A DNA stretch of 59,734 nucleotides from a bacterium (GCA_021787635.1 JAJYLO010000001.1:1-59734); one strand, 5' to 3'; positions 5,400 through 59,734 are shown, numbered from the stretch's first letter. Notes: generated from the letters alone by a model not told the origin. A program made the numbers and translations.

Positions 5400-7085
5400 T
5401 TATCGTACCTGATAAATTTTTACCTCCGGATTTTCGTAGATTTTTTTCAGAAAAGGATAAAGGGCGATATTGCCGCCGACAGCCCGTTCCTGATAGCCGT
5501 CATAGACATACCGGAAGTGATTGTTTTTCAAAAATTGGTCTGCGTCCCGGGCAGATAAAGTGCCGGAGTAGAAAGGTGTCCTTAAATTATAATCCATGTT
5601 GGCGCCGGTGGCGTTTCCGGAAAAGCCGATAATGAGAAAACTGGCTTCGTAAAGCGCCAAGACGCCGGAGCCGACCGGCGTGTTTTTTTCCAGCCACCGA
5701 AAAGCGGCCACTTGCGCAACGGTCGGATAAGTAAAATTGGAAAAGCTTTTAAAATCGGTGAAGGCGAAAAGCTGTTCCTTGTAGGACAGGTAATAATTGG
5801 GCCCGGTGATAATAAAAAGGGTGAATAATAGAAAGCTCAACACCGTGTTTCTCGCAATGAGGAACACCCATTCCCCCCGCTGCTGCTCGGTCTGCTCCTT
5901 AATTGCTCGAAACAGATGTTTTCGCTTTCTTAAAATTATTTGTATTATTATCTGCGTAAGTTGTGTGCTTACAATTGTAATCAGATAGGCGGAAAAAAGG
6001 GCCAGTGGCAGATAATACAGGCTGTTGAAGGAACGGAGGGGATCGAGCCGGACAAAATCGCCAAAAAAGAAGAGGAAAAGTTGGACGAAGAACCAGATTA
6101 TTAAAAATATTAATTGAGGAAGCTCGACATGACTTTGTCGCAAAAATTTCATATCTTCGCTTTCCCTTAATAGCATTAATATCGCACCGGCAATTCCCAA
6201 AAAGAAAATCGGACCGATAGACATAATGGCATCCCAAAAAGGAATCGCCGGATGGCTGATGATATAAAAAGCCGGCGCATTACCCAAGGTGCCCCAGGGC
6301 GGCTGTGATAGGAAGTGCTGATTATATAAAAAAAGCGGGATAGCCAGGGTAAACGGTACAAGGCTATCCCAGGCAAAAGTCACCAGGGCGAAAATGCCGA
6401 ATGACACGGATAAAATCAAAAAAGCAAACGGGTTGGCCAAAAGGGTAAAATTAATAAGTATTCCGGCCACCAGGATTTTTTTCCAGCCGGCAGTTTTTCC
6501 GGTGAACCACCATAAAACCACCAGGATAAAAAAAATAGCGCCGGCCGTATAATGAAGCGGCCCGGTCGCCCGGCCGATAATATTTTGCTCCTGGAACCAA
6601 GCCAGATAGCGGGAAAAGCTGATTGGCCAAAGATGGTCGATTTTCGGAAAACCGGCGACATAAAACGTCAGCCAAAAAGCGACGGCCGTCAGCATTTTGC
6701 TTTTGGTCAGCCGGTAAAAAAAGACCCAGCACAAGATCAGAAAGATTAAGCCGTAAATTGCTCTTGCCAGATGATAAGAAAATATGGAATTAAATCCGAA
6801 TAAATGGCCAAAAACAAACCCCGGCAGGGTATGGGCCAGATGAGCATAGACGGGAATTTGCGGTTGGGTAGTCGCCAGCAGCCGGGCGCCCAGTTCGCCC
6901 CGACGACCCAACTCAACATATGACAGGTAAGTAAAATAGTCGCTGCTCCAGCGGTTGATGCCGGAAAAAACCTGCCCGGCGGGTGTGGCCAGATATTCGA
7001 AAAACCAGGGTGAAAGGGAGATTGTTAAAGTGATACCGACCGCGACCGGCAATAAAAAATACCAGAAAAAGTTGTTGCTTTTCAT
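5400..7085 (-). CDS. Large polytopic membrane protein, putative GT-C-type glycosyltransferase (paralog A)
   Basis: 561 aa, more than 10 hydrophobic spans, soluble C-terminal domain. Its C-terminal motif NNHFRYVYDGYQERAVGGNIALYPFLKKIY is shared with the adjacent gene. Confidence 0.6.
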   Translation of the reverse strand: MKSNNFFWYFLLPVAVGITLTISLSPWFFEYLATPAGQVFSGINRWSSDYFTYLSYVELGRRGELGARLLATTQPQIPVYAHLAHTLPGFVFGHLFGFNSIFSYHLARAIYGLIFLILCWVFFYRLTKSKMLTAVAFWLTFYVAGFPKIDHLWPISFSRYLAWFQEQNIIGRATGPLHYTAGAIFFILVVLWWFTGKTAGWKKILVAGILINFTLLANPFAFLILSVSFGIFALVTFAWDSLVPFTLAIPLFLYNQHFLSQPPWGTLGNAPAFYIISHPAIPFWDAIMSIGPIFFLGIAGAILMLLRESEDMKFLRQSHVELPQLIFLIIWFFVQLFLFFFGDFVRLDPLRSFNSLYYLPLALFSAYLITIVSTQLTQIIIQIILRKRKHLFRAIKEQTEQQRGEWVFLIARNTVLSFLLFTLFIITGPNYYLSYKEQLFAFTDFKSFSNFTYPTVAQVAAFRWLEKNTPVGSGVLALYEASFLIIGFSGNATGANMDYNLRTPFYSGTLSARDADQFLKNNHFRYVYDGYQERAVGGNIALYPFLKKIYENPEVKIYQVR

Positions 7086-16176: not shown

Positions 16177-18090
16177 TTATTTTGAGATTTGAATTTTGAG
16201 ATTTGAGATGGTTTCTTTCAGCTGGTTGATTTCCTGCTGTTGTTGATTCACCTGATTCGTTAGATCGTTCAACTTTTTACCCACATCGACGCCGTTGACG
16301 ATGATCTGTTTTGCTTCCAAAAGACCCACTTTGATATGGCCGACAACCGCCTCGGCAAAAGCAGCAATTTGGGTAATGAGATTGCCGTGGATATCTTTAA
16401 CCTGACTGTTTTCATTAATAATTGCGCCACCTTCAGAATTAATATTTATGAACTTCGTAATATGCTGCAGATCAGTTATTTCTGCTCGTTGTGTTTGGAT
16501 CATGGATGTGTAGTCAAATGAGGAAAGCTTGTTTACTTGAGCAGAGATTGTTGCGACATTTTTAGCTAAAGCTTGGATACCAATCAGTGCGACACCAGAA
16601 GGATCGATCGTAGAAATAGCTTTATCCGTACCGTTTAATCCAAAGAGAGAATAGAAATCTTCAGCGACAGGACCGATGTGTTTTGCCGAAGGATCTTCAG
16701 TTTTATAATTCCATTCAGTGATTGGAAGCTGGTTGATCTTTTGTAATATAATATAAGGATTCAGTGCAGTGAAATTCTCTTTGACATCGCGGCTTGAACT
16801 ATTCTGCCAGGTGCTGCCATCGCTATAGGCACCTCCAGAAAGTTGAAAAAGATGGGAAGGACTCGTCGTCCCGATGCCGACTTTGCCACCACCATCTTGT
16901 AAGATCAAGTTTCCCCACGCGGATCCCGGTTTCAATGCATTAATAACACCAAAATTATTTGTGTCATTATAGCCGATTCTCACCCCATCTTGACCTGTAC
17001 CTGTAATAATTCCTGATCCAAAAATCGCGTGTTGAGAATCTGTATCATGGTTTATCCAGACAGGTAAGACAACTTGAAGTTTTCCTGCCGGACTCGTCGT
17101 CCCTATCCCGACGTTGCCGCTGCTGCCGTTATTTAATATAATTTTTGAACCATCCAAATACAGTGGTAAATAACCTGGGGAAGTTCGGTTATATGCTCGC
17201 AAGTTAGCTTCAATGCCATCCCAGGTTAATTCGGCTCCTGATCCACTGGTTGGGGCAACTTGGTTTATAGCCCTTATGGTTCCATTCACGTCGAGCTTTG
17301 CATAAGGTGCCGTCGTCCCGATGCCGACATTGCCACTTCCTGTAATACGCATGAAGATAGATTGATTAAAGGTGGTATTGTTGGAATGGAAGAAGTCCAT
17401 ATTACCGGTATTTGAAGAATTGGAAGCCATTCCAATACCCCAAGCTTCTCTAGTGGGATCACCAAGTACCCAGGATCCTGTTGCAAATGAGGCATTATTG
17501 CTTATGTCACCATATTTTGTAGTTAATGGATCAAAAGCTAATAATTCCAAGGAGCTGACTGTACCAAGAGAAATACGGGCATTATTTGTAGAGTAATTAA
17601 CCACTTGAAGAGCGTGCGCCGGAGTCGTCGTCCCGATACCGACGTTGCCGATAACACCAAGATCAGAGGATAACAGAACTGCATTCGAGAATGTTACACC
17701 AGGATCTGTAAGCGGTGGGGTGCTACCACCACCTTGAGTTCTGCTAACTGTTAGATTTCCAGAATTGTTAACTGTAAAAGATTCATAATTAGAAGTGTCA
17801 TAGCCAAGTCTGAGTTGTTCGGTAGTGGATAAAATGTGGAGATTAGCTCCTGGACTTGTCGTCCCGATGCCGACGTTGCCGTTAACATAGAGTTTGGCCG
17901 TGCCGCCGGTGACGTCGCCGCCGATGCCGACTTGATTAAAATTTTGGATGCCGCCTAAATGGGCATCGATGGTTAAATTGCCGGGATGGCCTATTCCGAG
18001 GGCCGGTACCGCTCTAAAAAGTTGAACAGCAATGAAACTGATAGTAATAAAAAAAAGAGTGATTAAAACTAGACGGATGGTAGTTTTCAT
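16177..18090 (-). CDS. Tail-fibre-like surface protein with GNVGIGTT repeats and a C-terminal peptidase-S74 intramolecular chaperone domain
   Basis: Signal/TM at the N-terminus. At least 6 copies of GNVGIGTT(S/A)P. SSSRDVKENFTALNPYIILQKINQLPITEWNYK..HIGPVAEDFYSLFG..VALIGIQAL matches the endosialidase/tail-fibre chaperone (S74) pattern, followed by a coiled coil. Confidence 0.8.
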   Translation of the reverse strand: MKTTIRLVLITLFFITISFIAVQLFRAVPALGIGHPGNLTIDAHLGGIQNFNQVGIGGDVTGGTAKLYVNGNVGIGTTSPGANLHILSTTEQLRLGYDTSNYESFTVNNSGNLTVSRTQGGGSTPPLTDPGVTFSNAVLLSSDLGVIGNVGIGTTTPAHALQVVNYSTNNARISLGTVSSLELLAFDPLTTKYGDISNNASFATGSWVLGDPTREAWGIGMASNSSNTGNMDFFHSNNTTFNQSIFMRITGSGNVGIGTTAPYAKLDVNGTIRAINQVAPTSGSGAELTWDGIEANLRAYNRTSPGYLPLYLDGSKIILNNGSSGNVGIGTTSPAGKLQVVLPVWINHDTDSQHAIFGSGIITGTGQDGVRIGYNDTNNFGVINALKPGSAWGNLILQDGGGKVGIGTTSPSHLFQLSGGAYSDGSTWQNSSSRDVKENFTALNPYIILQKINQLPITEWNYKTEDPSAKHIGPVAEDFYSLFGLNGTDKAISTIDPSGVALIGIQALAKNVATISAQVNKLSSFDYTSMIQTQRAEITDLQHITKFININSEGGAIINENSQVKDIHGNLITQIAAFAEAVVGHIKVGLLEAKQIIVNGVDVGKKLNDLTNQVNQQQQEINQLKETISNLKIQISK

Positions 18091-18137: not shown

Positions 18138-19328
18138 TCAAGGGGGGCATTTGCCGGGATTGTCTTGACAACATTCGGTGCGGGTGCAATAAAATTTATT
18201 CGGTTGGCAGACGCTAGGGTCAAAATACCCGTTACAGTCGCCGCCAATATTCAGGCACCATTTTCCGCAGGACGGCGTCTGGGGAAACTGGTTGGGGCTG
18301 GAAACAGCATACTGGTAATTATGATCACTGTTGGTGCCGCAGCCGCCGACGCCATTACATCCCAGCTGGGAAATGATCGGGTCGCTGGTATTGTTGAGGC
18401 TACTATAAATAATGTATGATTTGGGGCACATGTTGGTGCAGTTGATTGTCGGACAATAGCCGGTGCAGGTGGTCGAATCGACCTGGTAAAGATATTCTTT
18501 GGTGGCATGTTGCGGGTCACAGGGCAGCTGGCTTAGATAAGGGGTAAGAGATGGTGAAGACGATTCGGTGCCGCAAATATAACAGGTTTGCCACCGGGAA
18601 ATTTGATAGCCCCCCACCCCGGTACAGATATTGCTAAATCCCGCCGGTGTCGGTACCGGCTTTTGGTAACAAATCTGGTCCGGCCGGGGATAGCAGCTGT
18701 GATCATTGTAATAATCCTCAAGGACTTTTCGGAGAGTGTCAAGGTCGTGCTTCCGGCGTGCGTCTTGCGCTTTGGCAATTTGCTGCCAGGGATTTAAAAG
18801 CCACAAGGTGGCGGCGGCGAGGAGGGCAAGGAGGGCGATGACGATCGTCAGCTCGAGGAGGGTGAAACTGCTTCGGGTAATAGATTTAGAAGATGGAAGA
18901 TGGAAGATGAGAGATGGAAGATGGAAGATGAGAGATGGAAGATGAGAGATGGAAGATTGAAGATAACGAATTAATCCTATTAATAATTTGCCGATTTCAT
19001 CAGCCTCTTTCTGTAATTGGGAATAGGTTCTGCTATCTAAATAATATAGATCTTTAGCTAGTAAAAGATGATATTTTGTTTCCGCTAACGAACCCTTAGC
19101 TGTATAAAGAAATTGGAGATATTCTTTGCGAGATTTCTTTTCATTACCTTCGACGATATTAGCGGAAATTGAAGAAGCGGATCTTCTAAGTTGATCAACC
19201 AGCAGGTACTTTTCTTCTTTAGGAAACTTTTTAGTAATTTGGTATATTGACAGAACAAACTGATGAGCTTTTTGCCAAACGATCAATCTCTCAAACTTAT
19301 TTAATTTTTTATTATCTTCCATCTTCAA
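18138..19328 (-). CDS. Chimeric ORF: four-helix-bundle protein (23S rRNA IVS / S23p / Avd-like) joined in frame through a heptamer-repeat linker to a Cys-rich type IV pilin-like protein
   Basis: Residues 1-124, LIVWQKAHQFVLSIYQITKKFPKEEKYLLVDQLRRSASSISANIVEGNEKKSRKEYLQFLYTAKGSLAETKYHL, fit the four-helix-bundle family. The linker is SHLPSLIFHLPSLIFHLPSS. Then comes a prepilin motif TRSS/FTLLELTIVIALLALLAAA and a ~230-aa domain with more than 20 Cys. Confidence 0.75.
   Translation of the reverse strand: MKMEDNKKLNKFERLIVWQKAHQFVLSIYQITKKFPKEEKYLLVDQLRRSASSISANIVEGNEKKSRKEYLQFLYTAKGSLAETKYHLLLAKDLYYLDSRTYSQLQKEADEIGKLLIGLIRYLQSSISHLPSLIFHLPSLIFHLPSSKSITRSSFTLLELTIVIALLALLAAATLWLLNPWQQIAKAQDARRKHDLDTLRKVLEDYYNDHSCYPRPDQICYQKPVPTPAGFSNICTGVGGYQISRWQTCYICGTESSSPSLTPYLSQLPCDPQHATKEYLYQVDSTTCTGYCPTINCTNMCPKSYIIYSSLNNTSDPIISQLGCNGVGGCGTNSDHNYQYAVSSPNQFPQTPSCGKWCLNIGGDCNGYFDPSVCQPNKFYCTRTECCQDNPGKCPP
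18892..18961. repeat. Ten tandem heptamers GATGRRA (plus strand) forming the linker between the four-helix-bundle and pilin parts
   Basis: Read directly: gatggaa gatggaa gatgaga gatggaa gatggaa gatgaga gatggaa gatgaga gatggaa gattgaa. Confidence 0.9.
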
Positions 19329-19344
19329 TCTTTAATCTTCTATC
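19314..19344. repeat. 4.4 tandem heptamers ATCTTYN, the reverse complement of the 18892-18961 unit
   Basis: atcttcc atcttca atcttta atcttct atc. Covers the TTG/ATG start of the four-helix-bundle ORF and abuts the stop of the giant gene. Confidence 0.85.
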
Positions 19345-22300
19345 TAATTAATGATCAGCCAATTAAATTGTATATTGTTTATCACCGGTTTATCAATAGT
19401 AATGATAAAGTATGGCTTATCGCTGACGATCTTTTGGCTGACCGTCAACGGCGGGGAGCCAGGCGTGGTGGGGGTAATGTAGATCAGGGAATCGGCCTTC
19501 ACACTACTATTATATATAAGTATCTCGGTGGAGTTCGCCGGCAAAATGCCGACACCCGCCGATTGTGACTTCGTCTCAATGGCCGGGGCATTGATCCCGT
19601 TCTGGACCAGATTATCAGGCGCGGCAATCACCGCCGCCGACGAGGTGGCGTCCATATATTTATTGCCAATTGCTAAATTGTTGATTGTTAAATTGTTGAA
19701 TTGAGCCGATCCCGAAGCATCAATAGATGCGACCGTGTCTCCCACCGGATTCTTGATCTGCAGCCCCTGGGCGATGATTTCGCCTTTGGTCGTGATTGTC
19801 CCGTCGCGGGCGATGACGACGCCGCCGTCAAACAAGGTGATCGTATTAAACGCCGACAGTTTCAAATCGGAGGCGAGGGAGAGAATGGAATTATTTTCAA
19901 TAAACGTCTGGCCGATAAGCATGGAACCGGCGACGGAAACGTTGTAAAGATTAGATTGGCCGGTGACGGTCAGGGAGTCGGATTTTAGATCTAAGATGGA
20001 AGATGGAGGATTGGAAGATGAAGAACTTCCATCTGTTATCTTCGATCCTCCACCTAATGTAATATTCTGGTAATAATTTGCATTCGGCAACGGCTGATTT
20101 TGAATTTTGGCGAGCAACGATTGGATATCGTTCACGTTCGATGATAATGTATCGAGCGACGACGATTGGGAAGCGACATTATTTTCCAACTGATTGATAT
20201 TTTCCGACCGGACATTTTGGGCGACAAGAGTGCCGGAAACAGTCGCCGATTGAGCAACGAGTGTCCCGGAAATGGTCGCATTTTGCGCAGAGAGCGTACC
20301 GCTGAATGAGGCATTGCCGGCAGCGTCAATACTGGCGACAGTGGCATTATTGAGGCCTCTAATGATAATTTTGGCAAGTTTGCCTTTATCGTTAGGGGGT
20401 AGGGAGTTGGGAGTAGGTTGTAGGTTAATCGTCAAATCTCCATTTTGTGGTGCAATTTCGTTCGTCTGTATTTTATTTAGTTGTGCCGAGCCGGTGGCGA
20501 CAATGTCTTTGGTTTCGGCAATCGGCGAAACGACGGATTGTGAACCGAGAACCGCCCGGATTCTGTTATCGATATAATCCTGAAGGCTTTTGCCGGCGAT
20601 AGTAATATTGCCGCTGGTGACATTGAGGCTGTCGGTAACGATATTTTGAGCATTGACCAACCCGGCCGTCAATTTGCCAATAACTGCTTGGGCGTAGGCG
20701 CCGATATCGTCGACGATAGTGCCCGTGTCAAACTTGACGGTATAACCGTTATTATTTAAATTCCCGTCATATACCAGCTGGGGCGTGCTGACGTTGCCGG
20801 AGGAATCGACGTTCAGCCGGCTCATGTCCGGATCGTTGATGGTCAGGCCGCCAACATCCGATGACGAGCGGGTATTTTTCCACTGGGCGTAGTCGAAGCG
20901 GGGCGCGGTCAGCCGGTAGCTGACGACGGTCGGCCGCGAGGCGTAAATAACCAATTGGAAATTGGCCGGGTCGACCGTATACCAAGTGCGGGCATTGGTG
21001 GTCGGCGTCAGGAGCGGAATCAGGTTTTGCATCGTATTGCGCAAATTGGTGACTTTGGCAAAAAGCCACAGGTCGGACGCTTTATCGGCATTATTGAAAT
21101 TGATGATATGGCGGTAGCCGACGCCGGCGACGTGCTCGTTGACGGCGACGGTGCCGGTCGTTTCTTCTTTGACGCCGGTCATTGACGGGTTATAAGTGGC
21201 GTATTTTTCGCCATTAATGACGTACGGCGGATCGATCGTGCCGGCGTCGATTTTGCCATCGCAGTTGGCGACGCCGGAAGAATAAGTGGTGTTGACGCAC
21301 AGGGTGGCACTGGGGGTAGCAGTGCTATTTATTATCAGCGTGCTGCCGGAGGCAGCAGTGATTGTCGGGCCGTTGGTCGGGCCGCCGGGGGTATTGTCTT
21401 CCAATATCATGTTCCAGTTGGTATCGGTGTTTTGGGCATATGAGTGTAACATGTTTATATAGCTCATGCCGGCCGGATCAAGATAGCGAGTATTGTCGGA
21501 ATTGTCGTAATACTTTTCAGCGTTGATACTGCCGCTGCCGACGTCCAATCTTTGTGTCGGGCTGGTTACGCCGATCCCCACATTACCGCTGACATAAAGT
21601 TCATTACTTTGTGGTAAGGCATTTGCCGGTAATGAGCCGATGGCGACGGAGCCGTTGACATCCAGTTTATCCAAGGGAGCGGTGGTGCCGATGCCTAAAT
21701 TACCGGTAATATCGCTATTGCCCGATACTTCGAGTTTATTGGCCGGCGCGGTCGTTCCAATGCCCACATTGCCGTTGTTTAAGACTGTCAGCCCCCTAGT
21801 CGTACCGTCGGCCGCCAGTGTGGAAAAGATATTGATGGGGGTAGCGGTAATCACCCACTGGTCATTTAAAGTATGGCCGGTTGTGGCTCCAAAAGTAATC
21901 GTTACTCCATTAGTCAGCGTCTGGGCCGATCCGGTGATGGCGACGCCTGTCGTCCATGATCCCGCGCCTTTTTGCCACTTGAAGGTATCCGGTGTCCCTG
22001 TCGCGTCGATGACGACGGTATAGGTCTGGGCAGTAGTATCGGTACCGGTATAAGTGCCGCCGGAAGTGGCATCATTTAAGCCGGTGCCGGTAAAGACGGC
22101 GCTGCCGATACTGCCCGATCCTTTGACATCCAATTTGTATGCCGGTGAAATGGTGCCGATGCCGACGTTGCCACTGCTATCTATCAACATCCGATACGCT
22201 GTTGCTGTACTGTCATAAATACCAAAAGCTCCGCTATTAGCTCCCAATGTACCAAGACTCTGTACTAACCAGTCCCGGGAAGCTTTAAGTTCCAAATTAG

Positions 22301-23918
22301 AATTATAGGAAGTGTTCGCATTTTCGACTAAACTAGTTAAATTTGCGGTAGAATTTTGATAAACATGTAACTTTTGACTCGGCCCCGTCGTCCCAATTCC
22401 CACATTGCCGGAAACATATAACTCATTACTTTGTGGTAAGGCATTTGCCGGTAATGAGCCGATGGCAGCTGAACCATTCACGTCCAGCTTGTTTAATGGG
22501 GTAGTGGTGCCGATGCCGACGTTGCCATTTTGGTCTATTCTCATTCTTTCAGATACGCCAGAGACTCCTGTAGCGAAAGTCAAACTTCCAGTTGAATCGT
22601 TCCCAATATAATTATTGTTTGTTGCTGAAGCATAATAGGTGTAGATCTTGTTTCCTATACTGTTTCCAGTAGTAATATTTCCACGTACGTCTAGTGTCTG
22701 AACTGGACTCGTCGTCCCAATCCCGACGTTGCCGCCGTTTTTGACGTATAAATTATCGCTACCAGCGGTTTGTAATCTTAAATTCCCGCTTTCCGAAGCA
22801 TTGAGGATGATGTCGCCGGTCGACGCCGACTGGATGGTAACTGCCGCGGCGCTTGTCAAAGCGAAAGTGGCGCTAGTCGCTGTCGAGCGGATGCCGGGCG
22901 CCGCCGCCGCCAGTAGCAGATCACCATCTTTATTGATAAAGGGAACGTTGCTGGTATTTCCACCAGGCGGCAGGCCCTGAAGGGTCGCGGCATTCATCGC
23001 ATATCCCACGTTCGCAATTTGTTGGCGCGGAGTCATTTCCGCATCGCTTGCCACTTGTATACTCATATAAACATTGGCATTTTCGGTAAAGACCGATGGA
23101 TCGATTTGGCTCCCGCAGACCGACTGGGGTGGAGTGGGGGAATAGCCCGATCCGCCAATGAGAACAGAAAAGATTCCGTCCGTATCGGGAGTGATAGAAC
23201 AAGCACCGGTGTCATAAAGCATGGTGCCGGCTGCGGGGGCATTGTACAGGCGGAAATCGACATTGACGGCCGAATTGATCGGATTTTTAGTGCTGTCGGT
23301 GAGGCGGCCCTGGAAGGAAAGAATCCGGCCAGCGGTAACCGGCGCAATAGGGTAAGCAAACGTCCGTGGACTTTTGTTAAAGAATTGATTGTAAAGTCCC
23401 GCACCGAGGACAGCGAGGAAGATTATAACAATGGTAAAGGCGACGTATTGTTGCGGTGACAATTCCTGTAGGGACGCGGTTTCTGCGCCCTTCATATTTT
23501 GTGTACGGGTGGTTGACGGGTCGGGAGACCCGGCCCCAACATTTTTGATGTTCAATAACGGAATCCGTTTCAATATCCCGAAAATGAATGATTTAATTTT
23601 ATTGGCCGATTCGAACTGGTCGATTGACGGCACGGTATCGATGATCATTCTGGCTTCAGATCGGGCTTGTTCCGTGTTCCGCGTTTTTCCGCGTTGATTT
23701 CCGCGTTGTTCGGCGGTGGCGCTGGAAAGATAATTAGCGATTAGTGGTCTTATCTGCTGATAGGAGGCAGTATCTATAAACCCCTTCCCGTGAGCCCAAT
23801 CTAAAAACTTATCCACCGACCGTAATTTCTTGGCCACAGTTGAGGAAGATTCTCCACGATCGTGAAGAGTTTGGATATAGCCTCGAATTGTTTCCGGTCT
23901 AATCGATTTAAAATTCAT
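19344..23918 (-). CDS. Giant (1524 aa) membrane-anchored surface protein: N-terminal integrase SAM-like (core-binding) domain, one TM, extracellular fibre with GNVGIGTT repeats
   Basis: The N-terminus ETIRGYIQTLHDRGESSSTVAKKLRSVDKFLDWAHGKGFI resembles the Xer/phage-integrase N-terminal domain. TM is YVAFTIVIIFLAVLGAGLY (~aa 158-176). Repeats such as LYVSGNVGIGTTGPSQ follow. Confidence 0.8.
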   Translation of the reverse strand: MNFKSIRPETIRGYIQTLHDRGESSSTVAKKLRSVDKFLDWAHGKGFIDTASYQQIRPLIANYLSSATAEQRGNQRGKTRNTEQARSEARMIIDTVPSIDQFESANKIKSFIFGILKRIPLLNIKNVGAGSPDPSTTRTQNMKGAETASLQELSPQQYVAFTIVIIFLAVLGAGLYNQFFNKSPRTFAYPIAPVTAGRILSFQGRLTDSTKNPINSAVNVDFRLYNAPAAGTMLYDTGACSITPDTDGIFSVLIGGSGYSPTPPQSVCGSQIDPSVFTENANVYMSIQVASDAEMTPRQQIANVGYAMNAATLQGLPPGGNTSNVPFINKDGDLLLAAAAPGIRSTATSATFALTSAAAVTIQSASTGDIILNASESGNLRLQTAGSDNLYVKNGGNVGIGTTSPVQTLDVRGNITTGNSIGNKIYTYYASATNNNYIGNDSTGSLTFATGVSGVSERMRIDQNGNVGIGTTTPLNKLDVNGSAAIGSLPANALPQSNELYVSGNVGIGTTGPSQKLHVYQNSTANLTSLVENANTSYNSNLELKASRDWLVQSLGTLGANSGAFGIYDSTATAYRMLIDSSGNVGIGTISPAYKLDVKGSGSIGSAVFTGTGLNDATSGGTYTGTDTTAQTYTVVIDATGTPDTFKWQKGAGSWTTGVAITGSAQTLTNGVTITFGATTGHTLNDQWVITATPINIFSTLAADGTTRGLTVLNNGNVGIGTTAPANKLEVSGNSDITGNLGIGTTAPLDKLDVNGSVAIGSLPANALPQSNELYVSGNVGIGVTSPTQRLDVGSGSINAEKYYDNSDNTRYLDPAGMSYINMLHSYAQNTDTNWNMILEDNTPGGPTNGPTITAASGSTLIINSTATPSATLCVNTTYSSGVANCDGKIDAGTIDPPYVINGEKYATYNPSMTGVKEETTGTVAVNEHVAGVGYRHIINFNNADKASDLWLFAKVTNLRNTMQNLIPLLTPTTNARTWYTVDPANFQLVIYASRPTVVSYRLTAPRFDYAQWKNTRSSSDVGGLTINDPDMSRLNVDSSGNVSTPQLVYDGNLNNNGYTVKFDTGTIVDDIGAYAQAVIGKLTAGLVNAQNIVTDSLNVTSGNITIAGKSLQDYIDNRIRAVLGSQSVVSPIAETKDIVATGSAQLNKIQTNEIAPQNGDLTINLQPTPNSLPPNDKGKLAKIIIRGLNNATVASIDAAGNASFSGTLSAQNATISGTLVAQSATVSGTLVAQNVRSENINQLENNVASQSSSLDTLSSNVNDIQSLLAKIQNQPLPNANYYQNITLGGGSKITDGSSSSSNPPSSILDLKSDSLTVTGQSNLYNVSVAGSMLIGQTFIENNSILSLASDLKLSAFNTITLFDGGVVIARDGTITTKGEIIAQGLQIKNPVGDTVASIDASGSAQFNNLTINNLAIGNKYMDATSSAAVIAAPDNLVQNGINAPAIETKSQSAGVGILPANSTEILIYNSSVKADSLIYITPTTPGSPPLTVSQKIVSDKPYFIITIDKPVINNIQFNWLIIN
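19994..20054. repeat. Heptamer-built imperfect hairpin lying in frame inside the giant gene
   Basis: agatggaagatggaggattggaagatgaag aa cttccatctgttatcttcgatcctccacc. Arms ggaggat/atcctcc and gatgaag/cttc(c)atc. Same GAAGATG unit as around the four-helix-bundle ORF. Confidence 0.7.
23670..23716. repeat. Irregular tandem TTCCGCG(TT) repeats in frame in the giant gene's cytoplasmic part
   Basis: ttccgtg ttccgcg tttttccgcg ttgatttccgcg ttgttcggcgg encodes (minus strand) AEQRGNQRGKTRNTEQ. Confidence 0.7.
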
Positions 23919-24024
23919 AGTTACTTTTTAAAGCGACCGAAGATCAGTTTTTCCGCCGGGTCGACTTTAAGCCCTTGATTTGTAATTAAAAACTGATGAT
24001 TTAAAATTTTGAATTGAGTAGTTT

Positions 24025-24064
24025 TATATATATTAAATACGCGCGCGCGCGAAAAAATATATAT
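24025..24064. other. (TA)n-flanked alternating (CG)6 tract upstream of the giant gene
   Basis: tatatatattaaata cgcgcgcgcgcg aaaaaatatatat. Confidence 0.7.
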
Positions 24065-24129
24065 CTGGCGGATAGGGTATAGTACTAAGGTTTTCACTAT
24101 TTTCATGATCCAGGATTTAAGATTTATGA

Positions 24130-24318
24130 TTAACGAAAAGCCAATCGCCGGCGTAAACCGAATCGCCGCTGGCTGCTTATTTTATCTTTTGGTCTGGATT
24201 CGATCACGGCCGAATCGTAAGGGCTGCCTTCCGCCGCCGGATCAAATAACAATTTGAGCGCGTTTAGCGCATATTTAGGGCTTTTTGAAGCCCAAGAGAT
24301 CATAGAAACAGTTTTCAT
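24130..24318 (-). CDS. Possible small hypothetical protein (62 aa)
   Basis: ORF lies directly downstream of the SAM-like gene on the operon strand. No recognisable motif. Confidence 0.25.
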   Translation of the reverse strand: MKTVSMISWASKSPKYALNALKLLFDPAAEGSPYDSAVIESRPKDKISSQRRFGLRRRLAFR

Positions 24319-24324
24319 ATAGTT

Positions 24325-24780
24325 TTATGAATTTATAATGGTGAAAAACTCGTTGAGATCATCTAAATCGTCACTTTGCGCCTCCGTGTCGGATTGGAAT
24401 TGAATCAAGGTGTTAGATAATGATATTGATCCAACGTTACCGATTTTTTTCGCCACATTTTCCTTTATCCAGCCTTGGGTGATGCAGAAAGAACAAAACT
24501 TTCGCATTGTTGAGAGGCGACGATTAATGGTTTTGGGAGGAATACGATTAGTGGTTAGATAATTTTTATATTCGGCGATTGTTTCGGCGGTTAACAATTT
24601 TTGTAGGAGCAAGGCTTCCTCGTCCTTATTTACTACATTTTGTTGCGTATTTGTTATCCACCCGGCGAAATGCCGGAAATCAGACAGGTAATTCTTGATT
24701 GAAACCGGTTTGGCATTTCCCGCAAAAAGGTAATTCCGAAACGGGGCCTCAAAATTATAAAGATTATACGGGTGAACCAT
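24325..24780 (-). CDS. Stand-alone integrase SAM-like (core-binding) domain protein, no catalytic domain
   Basis: SIKNYLSDFRHFAGWI..TAETIAEYKNYLTTNRIPPKTINRRLSTMRKFCSFCITQGWIKEN. Only 151 aa. First gene of the minus-strand operon. Confidence 0.7.
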   Translation of the reverse strand: MVHPYNLYNFEAPFRNYLFAGNAKPVSIKNYLSDFRHFAGWITNTQQNVVNKDEEALLLQKLLTAETIAEYKNYLTTNRIPPKTINRRLSTMRKFCSFCITQGWIKENVAKKIGNVGSISLSNTLIQFQSDTEAQSDDLDDLNEFFTIINS

Positions 24781-24966
24781 ATGATTTCATAATAAAACAA
24801 TAATAATAACGGTGTCAAGAGGTATTTTATATATATTTTGATATAGAAATTACCGCGAATTAGAAATAAATTTAAACGAATAAAAATACCTCATAGTAAG
24901 ATTTAATTGTATTTAATATAATTACCGTATGGTTCATTTGCTTACGCTTTTATATCAAATAACATC

Positions 24967-25037
24967 ATAAATCTTATAGTAATATGTCCTTATAGTTGAT
25001 ATGTTCTTATAGTTGATATGTTCTTATAGTTGATATG
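24967..25037. repeat. 17-bp direct repeats (3 good + 1 degenerate copy), iteron-like
   Basis: atgtccttatagttgat (24984-25000), atgttcttatagttgat (25001-25017), atgttcttatagttgat (25018-25034), preceded by ataaatcttatagtaat. Confidence 0.9.
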
Positions 25038-25317: not shown

Positions 25318-25731
25318 ATGAAAAAGTTATTCTTTTTTTTACTAATAATATTGTTTATTTTGGTTGGGTTTTCCCTGTTTTTTTGGCTTTATGAAGTGAA
25401 ATTCTTCGTTGGCCGCGCCGCCGTTACCGCCCAGTCTTTTTCCATCGACAATTCCTATCTTTTTACGACGCCACTGCGGGCGATGGCCAACGGACAAGAA
25501 AAAATCCGAGTGACGGTATTTATTCTCAACAATCAGGGATTGGGGGTAATGGGGAAAACGGTGCAGATGGGGCCGGATAAAAACCTGGTAATCGAAACAA
25601 TTCAGGGCCTCACAGACGGCTATGGTAAAGCCTATTTTGACGTATCTTCGACCCATGCGGGCGATTACTTCCTCCAGATTACAGCTGATGGTAAGGCGCT
25701 AAAACAGCAAGTCCACCTGTCTTTTTATTAA
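25318..25731 (+). CDS. Small membrane-anchored protein with a bacterial Ig-like (Big_1-like) domain
   Basis: N-terminal TM; KIRVTVFILNNQGLGVMGKTVQM..GYGKAYFDVSSTHAGDYFLQITADG. Confidence 0.55.
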   Translation: MKKLFFFLLIILFILVGFSLFFWLYEVKFFVGRAAVTAQSFSIDNSYLFTTPLRAMANGQEKIRVTVFILNNQGLGVMGKTVQMGPDKNLVIETIQGLTDGYGKAYFDVSSTHAGDYFLQITADGKALKQQVHLSFY

Positions 25732-25748
25732 TATAATTAAAACGCTGA

Positions 25749-26684
25749 TTATTCGGCCAAAGTGAGGGGATTTTTCTCCGCGACGATGAGAGATACTTGC
25801 CGGAGAGAAAGAGACCGGTTGCGGGCAATCACATGGGGATGTAAGAAGCGGCGAAGCAAATAGATGGTAATTAATGCCAATTCCGTGAGAATGATTACTT
25901 CCAACAGCCGGCTCTTGATCAGTGTGAATATAAGCAGAAAAAACTGGACAATCATCATCCACCAGGGCATAACCTGTAAATTAAGCTCAATGCTGTCCGG
26001 CGACAGTGATTGCTGCCAGTTGGCGCGGGCAAAAAGGCGGAATGTTTGGGCGCTGGCGGAGGGTAAAGATACGGAAAAATTGCCCTTGGCGTCGCTATGG
26101 GCGGCGAGGGAGGGAAAGCCGTAGGCCTCAACAGGCTTAACGATATTAAAATTAATTCCGCGTGAATTATTAGTGTTCATATAAACCGATAAATCTACGT
26201 CCGTATTGGGGACTGCTTGGCCCGACAAAACAATCTCGTCGCCGACATAATAATCACTACCGACGGACGGATTATTTAAAGAAACCGTCGGCGGCATAAT
26301 GACCGGACCGATCGTGGCATCGTATGATGTTGGAAACGGCGGCAGGCAAACCGGTGATGTTAGCCGGCCCAGCTGGTCCTGGGCGGTCAGGCAGGCGGCC
26401 CGCGGCGATTGGGGTGAGAAACGGTTCTTAAATTCAAAATAGCCCTTATCATCGGCTGTCGTCTGGTCGTATATCCCCAGGCCGTCAAACGTGATTAGTG
26501 CCCGAGGCGAACTATAGCCGTAAAGAGTAAAATGGTGATCGCCGACAAAAGCGCTGACAGTAACGTTTTGCTGAACTTCCTTGGCTATCGTCGGTGGTTG
26601 TTTTTCCAACCGGTAAGTAATCGCTTGAAAAATAATAACAATCGCTAAAAGAAGCCCGATAATTGCCAGCAGATGACGGTACAT
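25749..26684 (-). CDS. Membrane protein with two Ig/CarboxypepD_reg-like beta domains and C-terminal TM helices
   Basis: N-terminal TM; GYSSPRALITFDG..DDKGYFEF and LSGQAVPNTDVDLSVY..DAKGNFSVSL; hydrophobic C-terminus. Confidence 0.5.
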   Translation of the reverse strand: MYRHLLAIIGLLLAIVIIFQAITYRLEKQPPTIAKEVQQNVTVSAFVGDHHFTLYGYSSPRALITFDGLGIYDQTTADDKGYFEFKNRFSPQSPRAACLTAQDQLGRLTSPVCLPPFPTSYDATIGPVIMPPTVSLNNPSVGSDYYVGDEIVLSGQAVPNTDVDLSVYMNTNNSRGINFNIVKPVEAYGFPSLAAHSDAKGNFSVSLPSASAQTFRLFARANWQQSLSPDSIELNLQVMPWWMMIVQFFLLIFTLIKSRLLEVIILTELALITIYLLRRFLHPHVIARNRSLSLRQVSLIVAEKNPLTLAE

Positions 26685-26685
26685 T

Positions 26686-27699
26686 TTAATCCTTTCTCTT
26701 TTTCAATGCTTCCCGCAGTTTTTCGATTTCCGCTTTTTCCTCGGTAATTTCCTCTTCCAGGACCGATTCTTTTTTCATTAATTTAGTGTAGAAATTGCGG
26801 CCGAGGACAAACAGGATTACTAAGGTTAAAAGAACGACCAGCATGACGCGCCACGGCAACACCCAGACGTAGACTGTATCGGTCAGCCGTTGATTATTGC
26901 TGCCATAGCTGGCCAGAAGCGTAATTTTATACCGGCCGAACATCCATTTGTGGCCAAGCGATAACTCATAATTTTTTATTTTCCCCGGAAAAATCCGCCG
27001 ATCCGGCAAGTTCTGCTGGTCGACGTATGAACCGAAAAGATTGGTCAAAGTGGCGTATCCGGTGGGCGACAGATGAATATCGCCGTTATTGGCCAAATCG
27101 ATTGATAGAGGGATTGGTCCGTATTCCAGGAAGCTGGGGAAATTGACCTGGCTAAAGGACATGTTTTCATTACATTGCCGGCCTTGGGCGACAAAATTCA
27201 ACAAGGCGCCGATTTTGGTGGTGACGCTGGTGGCGGCTTCCTGGCCGGTACCCAAGCGTTTGATGGCCGCCGGATTTGGTTCATAATAAACCATAGCATA
27301 ATAACCACAGCTTGTCAGAACAGGCGGCGGGGTGATGTACATAGTTATTAGTACCGATTGTCTGGCCGGTATGGCGACATTGGTCGTGTCCGATAACGTG
27401 ATCCAGGAGGACGCCGAATATGTTGGCTTAAGAGTGGAATCTTCAATAATTTGTGTCGTTCCTTTTTTATCGGTGATGATAAAATCGGCGACTTTAACGG
27501 TACCGATCGCCAGCGAATCGGAATTATTGCGGAATTGGACCTGGGCGCGGGTTTTGACTCCGGGCGTGACTTTTATATCCTGGACGGCCGGAAAAACCGA
27601 ATAGGCGGCGGTATCCTGGGCAAAAGAGGGAATAGGGAGTAAAGCATAGAGAATAGCAAAAACAATAAAAGCGATAATGATAAATAATTTTTTCTTCAT
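26686..27699 (-). CDS. DUF916/CscA-like cell-surface protein (signal peptide, beta-sandwich part, C-terminal TM anchor plus charged tail)
   Basis: Signal peptide ..PIPSFAQD; YSVFPAVQDIKVTPGVKTRAQVQFRNNSDS..SWITLSD..GYYAMVYYEP; TM VMLVVLLTLVILFVLG; Lys/Glu tail. Paralog of 34284..35270. Confidence 0.5.
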   Translation of the reverse strand: MKKKLFIIIAFIVFAILYALLPIPSFAQDTAAYSVFPAVQDIKVTPGVKTRAQVQFRNNSDSLAIGTVKVADFIITDKKGTTQIIEDSTLKPTYSASSWITLSDTTNVAIPARQSVLITMYITPPPVLTSCGYYAMVYYEPNPAAIKRLGTGQEAATSVTTKIGALLNFVAQGRQCNENMSFSQVNFPSFLEYGPIPLSIDLANNGDIHLSPTGYATLTNLFGSYVDQQNLPDRRIFPGKIKNYELSLGHKWMFGRYKITLLASYGSNNQRLTDTVYVWVLPWRVMLVVLLTLVILFVLGRNFYTKLMKKESVLEEEITEEKAEIEKLREALKKRKD

Positions 27700-27753
27700 A
27701 TTTTTATATATTTTTTATTTCTAAGCCCTACATCCTATTCTCTAAACCCTATG

Positions 27754-29202
27754 TTAAAACGTCGGCGTCGCAATATACGTTAACTTATTCATATAATATC
27801 CGGCTTGCTGGACATTACTGACGGCCAATCCGTAACAAACATTGGTGGCGCTACCGCTGACCGGAGCGATGTTACGCATAATAATCTGGGCAGTGGTTGA
27901 ATCAAACGGCTTGGCCTGAAAAGTCATGCTGGCGCCATTGTTGTAAGTAAAACTGGCGTCGGTGCCAGAGCTGTTGGCCAGGGAATAACCGAAACCGGAA
28001 GCGGTATAAGTACGCCAATCGGCCGGCGTTGTTACGCTGCACGAGTTATCCGGACAAGTGGTGTTGGCCAGGTTAGTTGTTCCTAAACCGCCGATGGACA
28101 ATGCGCCGTTTTCCTGGGCAGTAACGACATAACCGTTGGCAGCATTGGTATTGACCGTCAGTAGTTGTGCCAGGGTATAAAAAGTGCCAGATGTTACTGC
28201 TCCATAGGGGACAGTCGTCGCTGTCGTGGTCTGACTGGTAGTCTTGCCGCAGACACTCGTGCTGGACAAAACGCCGGCAATACTAAACGTCAGGTAATTT
28301 TGGACGGTGGCCGATACCAAGACACCTTCGACCGGAGCAGTAGCAATAGTTGCCGAATCTACAATATTGCTGCAGGTATTATTGGTATATGCATCGGTGC
28401 ATTCATTAACTGTTTCCGCATAGATATCGGCCGCGCCGGTGGTATGGCCGGAGGTAACCGGAGCCGGATTGATTAATTTATTAGTGCCGCCGATGGTGAT
28501 GGTGACGGTTGTGCCGGAAGCTAATGTGCCCGATCCGGAACATTTGGCGATGTGATAATTACCGCCGGCAGTTTGAGAGTTGACAAAATATGGTGTCCAG
28601 GTGGGGCCGGTGCCGGAACAGATAACATCGCTATTGCCCATTGCCCCGGCATCAAAACCGGAAGTACCGGCAGTGGCCGACGTGCCGTAATCGGGAAAAC
28701 CGTCATGGGAAGTGGCTCCCGAACCGACGGCCGGAATCAGGACCTGAATATACGGATTGTTAACGGTCGTTGCTGTTGTGAAAACAACCGTATGTGTCGC
28801 TGATTGGCTGGCGATCACCGGATCACCGTCCATCGTTGAACCTAAGGCTGTAGTTAGATTAACGGTCGTACCGTTATAGGTCGGAATGGAAGAAACGGTG
28901 TAATTGGTGGTACCGACACAACCGTTAGGAGCGGTGAGCGAGTCGCCGAAACAAATCGTATCACGGGGGAAAAGATTAACAGTGGTTGAGTCTGATTGGC
29001 CCGATGTGATTGTGAAAGTATTGGCGCCTGATGCTCCAGCGGAAACCTTTGAGCGAAAAGACAAGCGTGAATTAGAAAGAGTATCTTTTGCACTGGTCAA
29101 TGTGCCGGCATGGACGGCTAACTGTTTTGGTAACTGGACTAAAAATAAGTAAGAAATTTGCCAAACGGCAAAAAGAATGACAATCATTTTCTTCATATAC
29201 AT
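27754..29202 (-). CDS. Secreted Thr/Ser/Gly-rich surface protein with a WxL-like C-terminal motif
   Basis: Signal peptide, low-complexity T/S/G/A/N composition, C-terminus AGYYMNKLTYIATPTF. Paralogous ending to 35375..36115. Confidence 0.5.
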   Translation of the reverse strand: MYMKKMIVILFAVWQISYLFLVQLPKQLAVHAGTLTSAKDTLSNSRLSFRSKVSAGASGANTFTITSGQSDSTTVNLFPRDTICFGDSLTAPNGCVGTTNYTVSSIPTYNGTTVNLTTALGSTMDGDPVIASQSATHTVVFTTATTVNNPYIQVLIPAVGSGATSHDGFPDYGTSATAGTSGFDAGAMGNSDVICSGTGPTWTPYFVNSQTAGGNYHIAKCSGSGTLASGTTVTITIGGTNKLINPAPVTSGHTTGAADIYAETVNECTDAYTNNTCSNIVDSATIATAPVEGVLVSATVQNYLTFSIAGVLSSTSVCGKTTSQTTTATTVPYGAVTSGTFYTLAQLLTVNTNAANGYVVTAQENGALSIGGLGTTNLANTTCPDNSCSVTTPADWRTYTASGFGYSLANSSGTDASFTYNNGASMTFQAKPFDSTTAQIIMRNIAPVSGSATNVCYGLAVSNVQQAGYYMNKLTYIATPTF

Positions 29203-30913: not shown

Positions 30914-31648
30914 ATGGGGATCAAGGAACGACGAACGAAAATTTTGCTTATTTTATTCTTATTATCGGACGTAAGTTTTAATTTCACTTCGTTTGACGAA
31001 AAAGTTCAAAAAGCGTTTGACATTGCTTTAAATGAAAAAACCAGAGGGACGTTGTCCGGATTACTGCGCGAAGGGTTAATCGAAAAATCCGAAACAAACC
31101 AATATAAACTGACCCCAACCGGTTTAGCTGAACTTTTCCTTCAGTTTCCTTTTTTCCGGTTCCTGACGGAAAACTGGGATAAAAAATGGCGGATTATCTC
31201 TTATGAAATTCCTGAGAAAAAACGGGAACTGCGCGACCGGTTACGCCGGGAAATGCAGGGGTGGGGGCTTGGTCCCTGGCACCGTTCTTTTTGGATAACT
31301 CCGCACCCGATTATCGAAACATTACGTCAGTTAGTTTCTCAAAAAGAAGAGGAGCAATACGTCCAGGCGTTTGAGGCGGATCATGTTTTTGGCGGACGGG
31401 AAATTTTAATTGAGAAAGTTTGGGGAAAATCGCTTTTGGATAAAAAATACCGTGAACTTTTCAAAAAATGGCACGATGTTTTGTCCGGGGAAGAGGATAA
31501 AATGGAGAAGCTAAAAAAAGTCGTTAACGCTTATGTGGAGATGCTTAAAACCGATCCTGGGTTGCCCAAAGAATTGTTGGGTGAGCAGTGGATCGGGTAT
31601 GAGGGGTTTAATATCTTCAAGGAGATAAGGGGCATATTACTAGCGTAA
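30914..31648 (+). CDS. PaaX-like winged-helix transcriptional regulator
   Basis: wHTH-like N-part. WDKKWRIISYEIPEKKRELRDRLRREMQGWGLGPWHRSFWITPH matches the PaaX middle-domain pattern. Confidence 0.6.
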   Translation: MGIKERRTKILLILFLLSDVSFNFTSFDEKVQKAFDIALNEKTRGTLSGLLREGLIEKSETNQYKLTPTGLAELFLQFPFFRFLTENWDKKWRIISYEIPEKKRELRDRLRREMQGWGLGPWHRSFWITPHPIIETLRQLVSQKEEEQYVQAFEADHVFGGREILIEKVWGKSLLDKKYRELFKKWHDVLSGEEDKMEKLKKVVNAYVEMLKTDPGLPKELLGEQWIGYEGFNIFKEIRGILLA

Positions 31649-39082: not shown

Positions 39083-39114
39083 TATAACTTGACAACGATC
39101 GTGGATGAGTTATC
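39083..39114. promoter_or_regulatory. Palindromic element, copy 2, overlapping the promoter of the PaaX-like gene
   Basis: tataacttgaca acgatcgt ggatgagttatc. The -35 TTGACA lies in the left arm and the -10-like TATCAT in the right arm. Confidence 0.6.
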
Positions 39115-39116
39115 AT
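39089..39116 (+). promoter_or_regulatory. Promoter TTGACA-16-TATCAT, 6 nt before ATG 39123
   Basis: ttgaca acgatcgtggatgagt tatcat aaaatt ATG. Confidence 0.5.
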
Positions 39117-39122
39117 AAAATT

Positions 39123-43885: not shown

Positions 43886-43909
43886 AATAACTACAGGATA
43901 AAATACCTC

Positions 43910-43938
43910 TTGACAAATAAAATAATATACGCTACAGT
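43910..43938 (+). promoter_or_regulatory. Promoter TTGACA-17-TACAGT, 8 nt before ATG 43947
   Basis: cctcttgaca aataaaataatatacgc tacagt gatattat ATG. Confidence 0.55.
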
Positions 43939-43946
43939 GATATTAT

Positions 43947-44111
43947 ATGGAAAAATATTATAAGATAGAAAATTCTCAGATTAAACCCAATTTAAATATT
44001 AATTTGCTTTATTCTTTAATCTTAGTTCTTACTTCTAATCCCGGCCAGCTGGATGTTAAAAGTTCTCATAAATCTTATGGTAAGGCAATGCCCTCTCTTG
44101 CCGGAAACTAA
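43947..44111 (+). CDS. Possible 54-aa small membrane protein (below the ORF-track cut-off)
   Basis: My translation is MEKYYKIENSQIKPNLNINLLYSLILVLTSNPGQLDVKSSHKSYGKAMPSLAGN*. The ATG sits 8 nt after a TTGACA-17-TACAGT promoter. A terminator-like hairpin lies downstream. Confidence 0.3.
   Translation: MEKYYKIENSQIKPNLNINLLYSLILVLTSNPGQLDVKSSHKSYGKAMPSLAGN

Positions 44112-58331: not shown

Positions 58332-58348
<17 letters not shown>
55787..58348 (-). CDS. Large secreted M23-family metallopeptidase with a Pro/Thr-rich linker and beta-rich flanking domains
   Basis: Signal peptide. (P/T/S)-rich 90 aa. [47 protein letters not shown]. Confidence 0.85.

Positions 58349-59734
<1,386 letters not shown>

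Follow-up and report, generated by a model that had tools for sequence, protein, structure and literature searches.

The 59,734-nucleotide (nt) stretch of DNA analysed here (GCA_021787635.1, JAJYLO010000001.1:1-59734; hereafter the window) carries on its minus strand three consecutive genes, encoding proteins of 151, 62 and 1524 residues that we refer to as the mini-protein, the micro-protein and the giant, respectively (Table 1). The mini-protein begins with a complete core-binding (CB, SAM-like) domain of the kind known from tyrosine recombinases, here named SAM1. On sequence comparison, the N-terminal module of the giant (N-module) is the second half of a further SAM-like domain, the first half of which is the tail of the mini-protein. 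The other gene content of the window is chromosomal (NusG, L11, L1, LeuRS, a class-I tRNA synthetase of the Trp/Tyr type, TGT and NAD synthase). Homologues come nearly all from Roizmanbacteria and other Microgenomates/Patescibacteria, and the host appears to be a Roizmanbacteria-like (Patescibacteria) cell. Our comparison set consists of 80 related loci, which are given L-numbers, and homologous proteins, which are given P-numbers. L001 is a second assembly of the same genome and L082 is a 91%-identical relative from the same sample; the starts and stops of all three genes agree between the window, L001 and L082.

Table 1. Coordinates of the three genes, their parts and the upstream elements in the window.
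Feature	Position (nt)	Strand	Description
17-bp tandem repeats	24972..25037	.	unit TCTTATAGTTGATATGT; 3.9 copies; Tandem Repeats Finder (TRF) score 111, 92% matches
Conserved promoter region	24781..24860	-	upstream element, 15-mer with -35, 18-nt spacer, -10
Upstream element	24834-24846	-	CTATATCAAAATA; conserved across loci
15-mer	24813-24827	-	AAATACCTCTTGACA; includes -35 TTGACA (24813-24818)
-10	24789-24794	-	TATTAT; 18-nt spacer to -35
Mini-protein gene (151 aa)	24325..24780	-	complete core-binding (SAM-like) domain and acidic two-helix tail
SAM1 (mini-protein residues 1-117)	24430..24780	-	complete core-binding-like domain, from columns of the A1 alignment, charge and AlphaFold2 (AF2)/Foldseek
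Tail (mini-protein residues 118-151)	24328..24429	-	shortened helices 1-2 of second SAM-like domain
Micro-protein gene (62 aa)	24130..24318	-	starts 6 nt past mini-protein stop; motif LFDPAAEGSPY, basic C-terminus
Spacer (211 nt)	23919..24129	-	probably non-coding
Giant gene (1524 aa)	19344..23918	-	half-domain head, linker, one transmembrane (TM) helix, tail-fibre-like ectodomain
N-module (giant residues 1-65)	23724..23918	-	helices 3-5 of second SAM-like domain
Cytoplasmic linker (giant residues 66-156)	23451..23723	-	holds conserved motif KIKSFIFGILKRIPLL
TM helix (giant residues 157-179)	23382..23450	-	QYVAFTIVIIFLAVLGAGLYNQF; sole Kyte-Doolittle window above 1.6
Ectodomain (giant residues 180-1524)	19347..23381	-	first domain, GNVGIG repeats, C-terminal end

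In Pfam searches (E = 7e-8) the mini-protein is matched by Phage_int_SAM_5 (PF13102) with 33.2 bits and by SAM_1 (PF02899) with 25.5 bits, the gathering cut-off being 22.3 bits for both families. Models of XerC and XerD match it over model positions ~12-95 only, and the family profile matches PDB entry 2KEY, the nuclear magnetic resonance structure of a Bacteroides integrase N-domain (E = 2.3e-5). There are 155 homologues of the mini-protein in Patescibacteria, 104-241 residues long and up to 89% identical. It belongs to the Patescibacteria family of stand-alone proteins annotated as “phage integrase SAM-like domain-containing protein” (alignment A1), in which it scores 213 bits against the A1 profile (the alignment includes the query itself) and has the tail of the family in a shortened form. 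SAM1 is basic, with 16 K/R residues to 8 D/E, and its helix KTINRRLSTxRKFCSFCI(S/T)QGW is nearly invariant in the A1 alignment. The AF2 model of SAM1 has helices spanning residues 7-113, and its Foldseek matches are recombinase CB domains. The window tail is acidic (no K/R, 7 D/E) and is modelled by AF2 as two helices (pLDDT 78-93). The consensus of the tail in the mini-protein family, ILxQFxxDLxKExLDxxTIxxYLxDVxEFL in A1, resembles helices 1-2 of a SAM-like domain.

The N-module of the giant is a partial match on its own: SAM_1 recognises it with 18.5 bits, which is below the cut-off, over profile positions 40-80 of 83, and it covers positions 41-96 of the XerC model. It has a net charge of +4 and AF2 pLDDT values of 90-95, and its KKLRSVDKF segment retains basic residues that line up with those of NRRLSxxRKF. 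Taken by itself, the tail of relatives matches SAM_1 positions 1-30 and their N-module SAM_5 positions 43-96. When tail and N-module are joined in silico in this order, one SAM_1 match running over positions ~1-83 is obtained for five of five related pairs (22.7-36.2 bits), and the pair from the window reaches 29.8 bits over positions 24-80, above the cut-off; the reverse order, N-module then tail, gives two separate partial matches. Unsplit versions of the domain also exist. In both P0192 (1869 residues, complete) and P0213, one polypeptide runs from SAM1 through a second, full SAM-like domain and the linker to the TM helix and ectodomain known from the giant. AF2 folds the joined tail and N-module of the window (99 residues, from single sequence) into a five-helix domain with pLDDT 89.4 and pTM 0.81. 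The best Foldseek match of this model is 3nrw (TM-score 0.71/0.68, rmsd 3.0 Å over 100 columns), followed by lambda Int, XerA, Tn1549 Int and Cre; these matches to recombinase core-binding domains are nearly full-length and have probabilities of 0.97-0.99. Mean charges over 24 pairs are -3.5 for the tail, +4.1 for the N-module and +6.5 for SAM1, so that the second domain as a whole is roughly neutral. The preliminary description of this stretch had credited both proteins with an integrase SAM-like domain. This stands for the mini-protein, which passes the Pfam cut-offs, and falls for the giant, which has one half only; two independent complete domains cannot be upheld, as the halves are complementary and unsplit relatives are known. 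The suggestion, also made there, of a module re-purposed for protein-protein contact fits best the N-module itself, a half domain with its partner half in the tail of the mini-protein.

Two arrangements predominate among the 80 related loci. The split one of the window occurs in about 31; about 31 others are fused, with a single open reading frame (ORF) for SAM1, a linker of 60-100 residues, the TM helix and the fibre, the second domain having been deleted. A strong tail and a strong N-module are found together in about 31 loci, and neither is found in any of the 31 fused loci (Fisher p = 8e-14, from hand-tallied counts). An exhaustive HMMER search with A1 recovered 204 clusters (50% identity) at E ≤ 1e-30 and 950 at E ≤ 1e-10. 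Their lengths are bimodal, clusters of 150-230 residues matching the whole profile including the tail and clusters of 680-4715 residues matching positions 1 to ~128 only. The combination of such a head with a membrane-anchored fibre, described before for the window alone, is therefore both real and widespread. Intermediates are also seen: P0179 has SAM1, the tail and the TM helix without the N-module, the second domain is partly deleted in P0252 and fully deleted in P0139, and several proteins of ~300 residues have two full domains plus a tail. A rough SAM1 tree has fused forms scattered over at least three clades in the midst of split ones, which indicates that transitions between the two states happened repeatedly. 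The split state is present in genomes labelled as Roizman-, Gottesman-, Shapiro- and Woesebacteria. In some genomes (L069, L049, L050 and L013) the mini- and micro-protein genes are followed by a different giant without an N-module, which has DUF2341, Laminin_G_3 and toxin receptor-binding-like domains (L069, 8621-13948); the N-module-bearing giant of L069 comes after this alternative giant, ~6 kb downstream of the mini-protein start.

The annotated ATG of the giant is its true start. Residues 4-62 of the giant are matched with 78 bits (E = 2e-23) by a hidden Markov model (HMM) for which 23 other giants, but not that of the window, supplied the N-termini. One reading frame takes in N-module, TM helix and ectodomain in every split locus, and the second assembly calls the identical start. 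Nucleotide identity to L082 is highest in the N-module (95.7%), compared to 93% for the micro-protein gene, 91% for the mini-protein gene and 74-79% for the linker and ectodomain. These results answer the earlier concern that the start might lie downstream of the TM helix, leaving the head outside the protein. The linker does have the length of ~90 residues first given for it; it is not purely low-complexity, as the motif KIKSFIFGILKRIPLL within it is conserved in other split giants. The motif is partly deleted in the window, where the linker is without 23 residues found in L082 and other split giants.

Only one hydrophobic segment occurs in the 1524 residues of the giant. The 156 residues on its N-terminal side have a net charge of +8 and no signal peptide precedes the folded domain, and we predict a bitopic protein with a single TM helix and a cytoplasmic N-terminus. 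Hydropathy, this charge and the tail-fibre matches given below all bear out the original proposal of one TM helix with the fibre outside. Throughout the family, fused and split giants alike keep the TM motif LGAG(I/L)YNQFF. At the homologous positions of L002-L081 the TM helix is among the best-conserved parts of the giants, with G-x-G followed by I/L. This pattern is suggestive of a site for processing or interaction rather than of simple anchoring; a signal-peptidase-like site or an intramembrane cleavage site is conceivable. The ectodomain (~1345 residues) is rich in T, S, N and G and has seven GNVGIG motifs. Its similarity to tail-fibre families extends over part of the giant only, with matches to PHROG tail fibres (phrog_9942, E = 2.3e-13; phrog_18345, E = 3.5e-11) at residues ~500-650. 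The conserved first domain of the ectodomain contains ..AGRILSFQGRLTDS..EMTPRQQIANVGYA; the ectodomain start is conserved in 68 of the 80 loci at ~65% identity, and the C-terminus in 16. The extreme C-terminus (I/F)xFNW(L/F/W)(I/V)(I/V)N is common to the window (NIQFNWLIIN; 19344-19403, minus strand), P0190, P0192, P0194 and P0252, and is kept whatever the length (1171-1869 residues) or the middle repeats.

Between the mini-protein gene and the giant gene lies a conserved gene that the preliminary description missed. Its motif [LW]xDP[AS]xxGxPY appears once per locus, on the same strand and directly 3' of the mini-protein gene, in 26 loci. An HMM of the micro-protein gene detects it in 34 loci including the window and in none of the 31 fused loci, so the gene is confined to split or mini-only loci. 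Its product is usually 52-63 residues long with a basic C-terminus and matched no Pfam family; third codon positions vary across loci while the peptide motif is kept, which supports its coding nature. The restriction to these loci suggests a role for the micro-protein in forming or regulating a non-covalent joint between mini-protein and giant. As for the spacer that follows, most other split loci have only ~20 nt at this position, and gaps from mini-protein to giant range from an overlap (-7) to 709 nt, with ordinary stops and starts. A 61-residue ORF within the spacer (23921-24106) does not qualify as a gene, its frame being disrupted by an 11-nt indel in L082. RNA folding of the spacer is not unusual (z = -0.93), there is no good promoter on its minus strand, and no tRNA gene and no Rfam family were detected across the whole 59.7 kb window. 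An intron, a structured RNA or recoding was thus rejected as an explanation of the gap, given also the ordinary stops and starts.

No other site in the region is as sigma-70-like as the promoter ahead of the mini-protein gene (11 of 12 matches). Since the mini-protein ATG comes 8 nt past the -10 box, the mRNA should be leaderless or nearly so. In 47 of 77 loci the distance from CTTGAC to the start codon is exactly 39 nt; over these 47, mean nucleotide identity is 63% from -77 to -1, 31% farther upstream and 65% in the first 90 nt of coding sequence. Besides CTATATCAAAATA, much of the promoter spacer is conserved too. The exact 15-mer AAATACCTCTTGACA is found in 43 related loci, at this place only, while a metagenome scan for it returned nearly all chance matches (1 of 81 family-like). 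It was considered as a specific operator and dropped, because the core also stands ahead of pilin genes of the Candidate Phyla Radiation (CPR). The window has a second exact copy of AAATACCTCTTGACA at 43901-43915 (plus strand), just past a GGDEF gene (43112-43885), and a 54-residue ORF, MEKYYKIENSQ..., begins ~30 nt beyond it (43947-44111, plus strand; no Pfam match).

Farther upstream are the 17-bp iterons, which the preliminary description had already pointed out and which TRF confirms. They contain ATATCAA, lie at the far border of the conserved stretch upstream and, on the comparisons given below, are strain-specific. Besides weak repeats, a tandem-repeat search upstream of 76 genes found an 11-bp phased CAAAATA pair. 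A recurrent motif, ..ATTAAATnnTAnTATAGG.., is present in many loci ~60-100 nt upstream of the -35 box (window 24860-24960, minus strand). Its reverse complement, CCTATAAT, contains a perfect -10 box and may be the divergent promoter of the Big_1-like gene described next.

Upstream of the three genes (25318-29202) are genes for three minus-strand proteins of 482, 337 and 311 residues, none with a Pfam match, and for a divergent 137-residue Big_1/invasin-like protein. These recur upstream of the SAM-like gene in 44-61 of the 80 loci, suggesting a larger surface-structure gene cluster. Downstream, the gene at 18138-19328 (minus strand) joins a four-helix-bundle protein (TIGR02436/23S rRNA IVP family, 134 bits) in frame to a prepilin with the N_methyl motif ..RSSFTLLELTIVIALL. 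The joint between the two parts consists of HLPSLIF heptapeptide repeats encoded by an imperfect 7-nt repeat, GAAGATG, in 10.9 copies (18889-18964). With no separate start codon near the pilin part, slippage in the repeat could switch the fusion and pilin expression on and off. Genes for four-helix-bundle proteins of the same family lie directly ahead of giant surface-protein genes in L050 (~5713-6250) and L013 (3121-3534), the giant of L050 beginning with similar heptad repeats (HPSSFIN..), and this gene may be a recurrent insertion module at surface-protein genes. The next fibre gene (16177-18090, minus strand) encodes 637 residues with Peptidase_S74 (endosialidase chaperone) and a C-terminal coiled coil; its product has GNVGIGTT repeats in common with the giant. 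Elsewhere in the window are two PaaX_M/Cas2-like proteins (30914-31648 and 39105-39713, both on the plus strand) and a collagen-triple-helix-repeat protein (58332-59657, minus strand).

The recombinase catalytic domain PF00589 (R-H-R-Y) has no match in the mini-protein or the giant in a Pfam search at E ≤ 1, in agreement with the preliminary description, and the Phage_integrase catalytic domain is also absent from the scanned window ORFs of at least 100 residues (thresholds from 1e-5 to 0.01). NCBIfam Xer models, whose cut-offs are 220-335 bits, match in their N-terminal third only and with 16-36 bits. The lack of a catalytic domain makes the locus unrelated to recombination. Nor does it look like a mobile element, having a housekeeping context and a neighbourhood that is syntenic in 44-61 of the 80 genomes (recombination sites were not searched for). 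Database records name the proteins “site-specific integrase” (for example P0137, 4715 residues, MCL4363703.1), “phage integrase SAM-like domain-containing protein”, “Core-binding (CB) domain-containing protein” or “XerD”. Annotation pipelines thus already detect the domain; the label “site-specific integrase” is wrong for these proteins. An exact look-up of the full-length giant returned no record. Public contigs (L002-L081) often end inside giant genes, shortly past the SAM-like head. Assemblies evidently break in the fibre repeats, and giant genes are therefore systematically truncated in the databases.

We suggest the following arrangement. The mini-protein, micro-protein and giant genes would form a three-gene cassette, probably co-transcribed from the one conserved, near-leaderless promoter, whose products together make up the cytoplasmic head of the fibre, a giant surface structure anchored in the membrane with its N-terminus inside and its C-terminus outside. 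Tail and N-module would assemble non-covalently by fold complementation, and the micro-protein would probably assist or regulate this docking. This assembly would fix the mini-protein beneath the fibre, on the cytoplasmic face of the membrane, and reproduce the architecture of the single-chain relatives. SAM1 could then bind the promoter of its own operon, so that the balance of tethered and free mini-protein feeds back on fibre expression or reports engagement of the fibre. The parts of this proposal are not equally secure. That tail and N-module dock by fold complementation and so hold SAM1 under the fibre is moderately probable, judging from the joined matches and the structural model, and we give about the same credence to the reading as a whole, in which split-domain docking tethers a basic, probably nucleic-acid-binding head. 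A target in the operon's own promoter region, with ToxR-type feedback or contact-dependent control, is unlikely. The idea of a ToxR-like regulator, put forward earlier for the giant, would apply to SAM1 only, in trans here and in cis in fused relatives. The split domain might also be a reversible latch, in which export of the fibre, its loading or host engagement frees the mini-protein, or in which the head is cut at the G-x-G of the TM helix; we regard this as improbable.

A number of observations weigh against the docked, nucleic-acid-binding head. Binding of nucleic acid by SAM1, as core-binding domains do, is suggested by fold, charge and family precedent, and the chance that it does so is somewhat short of even. 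The window tail carries a 7-residue deletion, shared with P0002, P0003 and P0008, and an independent tail HMM recognises only LDDLNEFFTIIN in it, with 8.6 bits; as the tail is shortened, docking may be weaker here than in relatives. The joined AF2 model is a covalent chimera folded from single sequence, in which amphipathic helices may pack by default, and like small helical domains in general it obtains weak E-values in Foldseek (0.27-1). P0179 keeps the tail without an N-module and L011 has no micro-protein gene, so neither piece is obligatory. On the promoter side, the core also precedes unrelated CPR pilin genes in metagenomes and is hence at least partly a generic strong promoter. L082 has ~1.7 copies of the 17-bp repeat, with homology stopping just upstream, and 76 other loci have only AT-rich weak repeats and no comparable array.

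The strongest competitor, though still rather unlikely, is that the head does not bind nucleic acid at all and that the core-binding fold is re-used purely as a protein-protein or assembly module. Such a module might hold, target, export or oligomerise fibres, or link them to pilus or competence machinery, the split making it a detachable factor. The second domain is clearly an interaction or connector element and roughly neutral, the TM and juxtamembrane segments are unusually conserved, surface proteins (p482, p337, p311, Big_1 and pilin) are neighbours in 44-61 of the 80 loci, and no operator has been demonstrated. Harder to accommodate are the strongly basic character of SAM1 (+6.5 on average), with an R/K-rich helix typical of DNA-contacting core-binding domains, and a promoter region as conserved as the coding sequence. 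We also consider it improbable that the two proteins hold independent SAM-like DNA-binding modules, the giant itself being a ToxR-like factor that acts, for example, on the iterons and the mini-protein a separate soluble regulator. Both pieces do resemble core-binding domains, the N-module is strongly conserved and keeps the basic positions, and a conserved promoter region and repeats are close at hand. The giant nevertheless holds helices 3-5 only (profile positions 40-80, below the cut-off), and the missing half is found solely at the end of the adjacent protein; tail and N-module are gained and lost together, unsplit relatives prove that they are one domain, and the iterons are strain-specific.

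Slightly less probable again is neutral gene fission in the course of decay, in which the window tail and N-module no longer interact and the mini-protein, if active, is a free cytoplasmic protein. Every intermediate that this would leave behind exists, from unsplit (P0192) through split and partial (P0179, P0252) to deleted (P0139), the window tail is eroded, and fused clades arise several times. Yet the split is kept across genomes under four different labels, with both halves conserved and a dedicated micro-gene restricted to it, and at short range the N-module is the most constrained stretch of all. An artefact, whether a break in assembly or sequencing or the decayed 5' end of an integrase or mobile element, can be practically dismissed. 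Names such as “site-specific integrase” and “XerD” and the frequent ends of contigs in giants might invite such an explanation, but two assemblies and the 91%-identical relative agree, ~30 independent loci share the split, there is no catalytic domain in the window and the neighbourhood is chromosomal and syntenic.

Among known systems, the closest in fold and sequence family is the core-binding domain of tyrosine recombinases (XerC/XerD, lambda Int, Cre and IntI; PF02899, PF13102 and PF13495), whose Pfam cut-offs the mini-protein passes and whose conserved R/K-rich last helix is retained. Unlike in recombinases, the domain stands alone or heads a membrane protein of 680-4715 residues without a catalytic domain, it occurs in tandem with the second copy split between genes, and the locus is chromosomal and syntenic. 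The ToxR, CadC and TcpP regulators have the same layout of a cytoplasmic N-terminal binding-type domain, linker, one TM helix and an outer part, through which happenings outside the cell could be coupled to DNA. Their binding domain is an OmpR winged helix, whereas here it is of integrase type only, with a predicted function; their outer part is a small sensor, whereas here it is a tail-fibre-like part of more than 1300 residues, with the complete domain on a separate polypeptide. Tail-fibre-like giants of CPR and other bacteria share the GNVGIGTT-type repeats and PHROG matches, and P0192 and P0252 carry Peptidase_G2-like segments (of the Peptidase_S74/G2 intramolecular chaperone type). In contrast to phage tail-fibre-like giants, the protein has an N-terminal TM anchor after a folded cytoplasmic domain and is encoded by a cellular, syntenic, non-prophage gene. 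Split inteins and other cases of fold or strand complementation likewise divide one domain between the products of adjacent genes, here with complementary charge. Unlike split inteins, there is no splicing chemistry here, the reassembly is a prediction, and the split falls in a helix-helix loop of a four-to-five-helix fold of DNA-binding type. In a limited literature search neither the architecture nor the split domain nor the micro-gene turned out to have been described before, and a paper on giant genes mentions neither integrase-like heads nor Patescibacteria (bioRxiv 10.1101/2023.11.21.568195).

The locus can be described as a core-binding domain exapted for a membrane-tethered setting. 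One consequence concerns annotation: hundreds of Patescibacteria proteins, a number of them thousands of residues in length, are labelled integrase, XerD or “tyrosine-type recombinase” without having a catalytic domain, and counts of integrases and mobile elements in Patescibacteria genomes are therefore inflated. As a natural domain split with unsplit, split, partial and deleted states surviving, the family also lends itself to studies of fold complementation and of how genes split and fuse, and the pair of tail and N-module might serve as a small docking pair in protein engineering. Giant surface fibres are thought to mediate host attachment in candidate-phyla bacteria, and the locus is a conserved, tractable link between such fibres and a cytoplasmic module of nucleic-acid-binding type. 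If the latch should prove true, the micro-protein would be its regulator, and attachment would lead directly to transcription, a contact-to-nucleoid signalling resembling that of Notch or SREBP in ultra-small episymbionts. The cassette might be a means by which these minimal cells sense or control their attachment.

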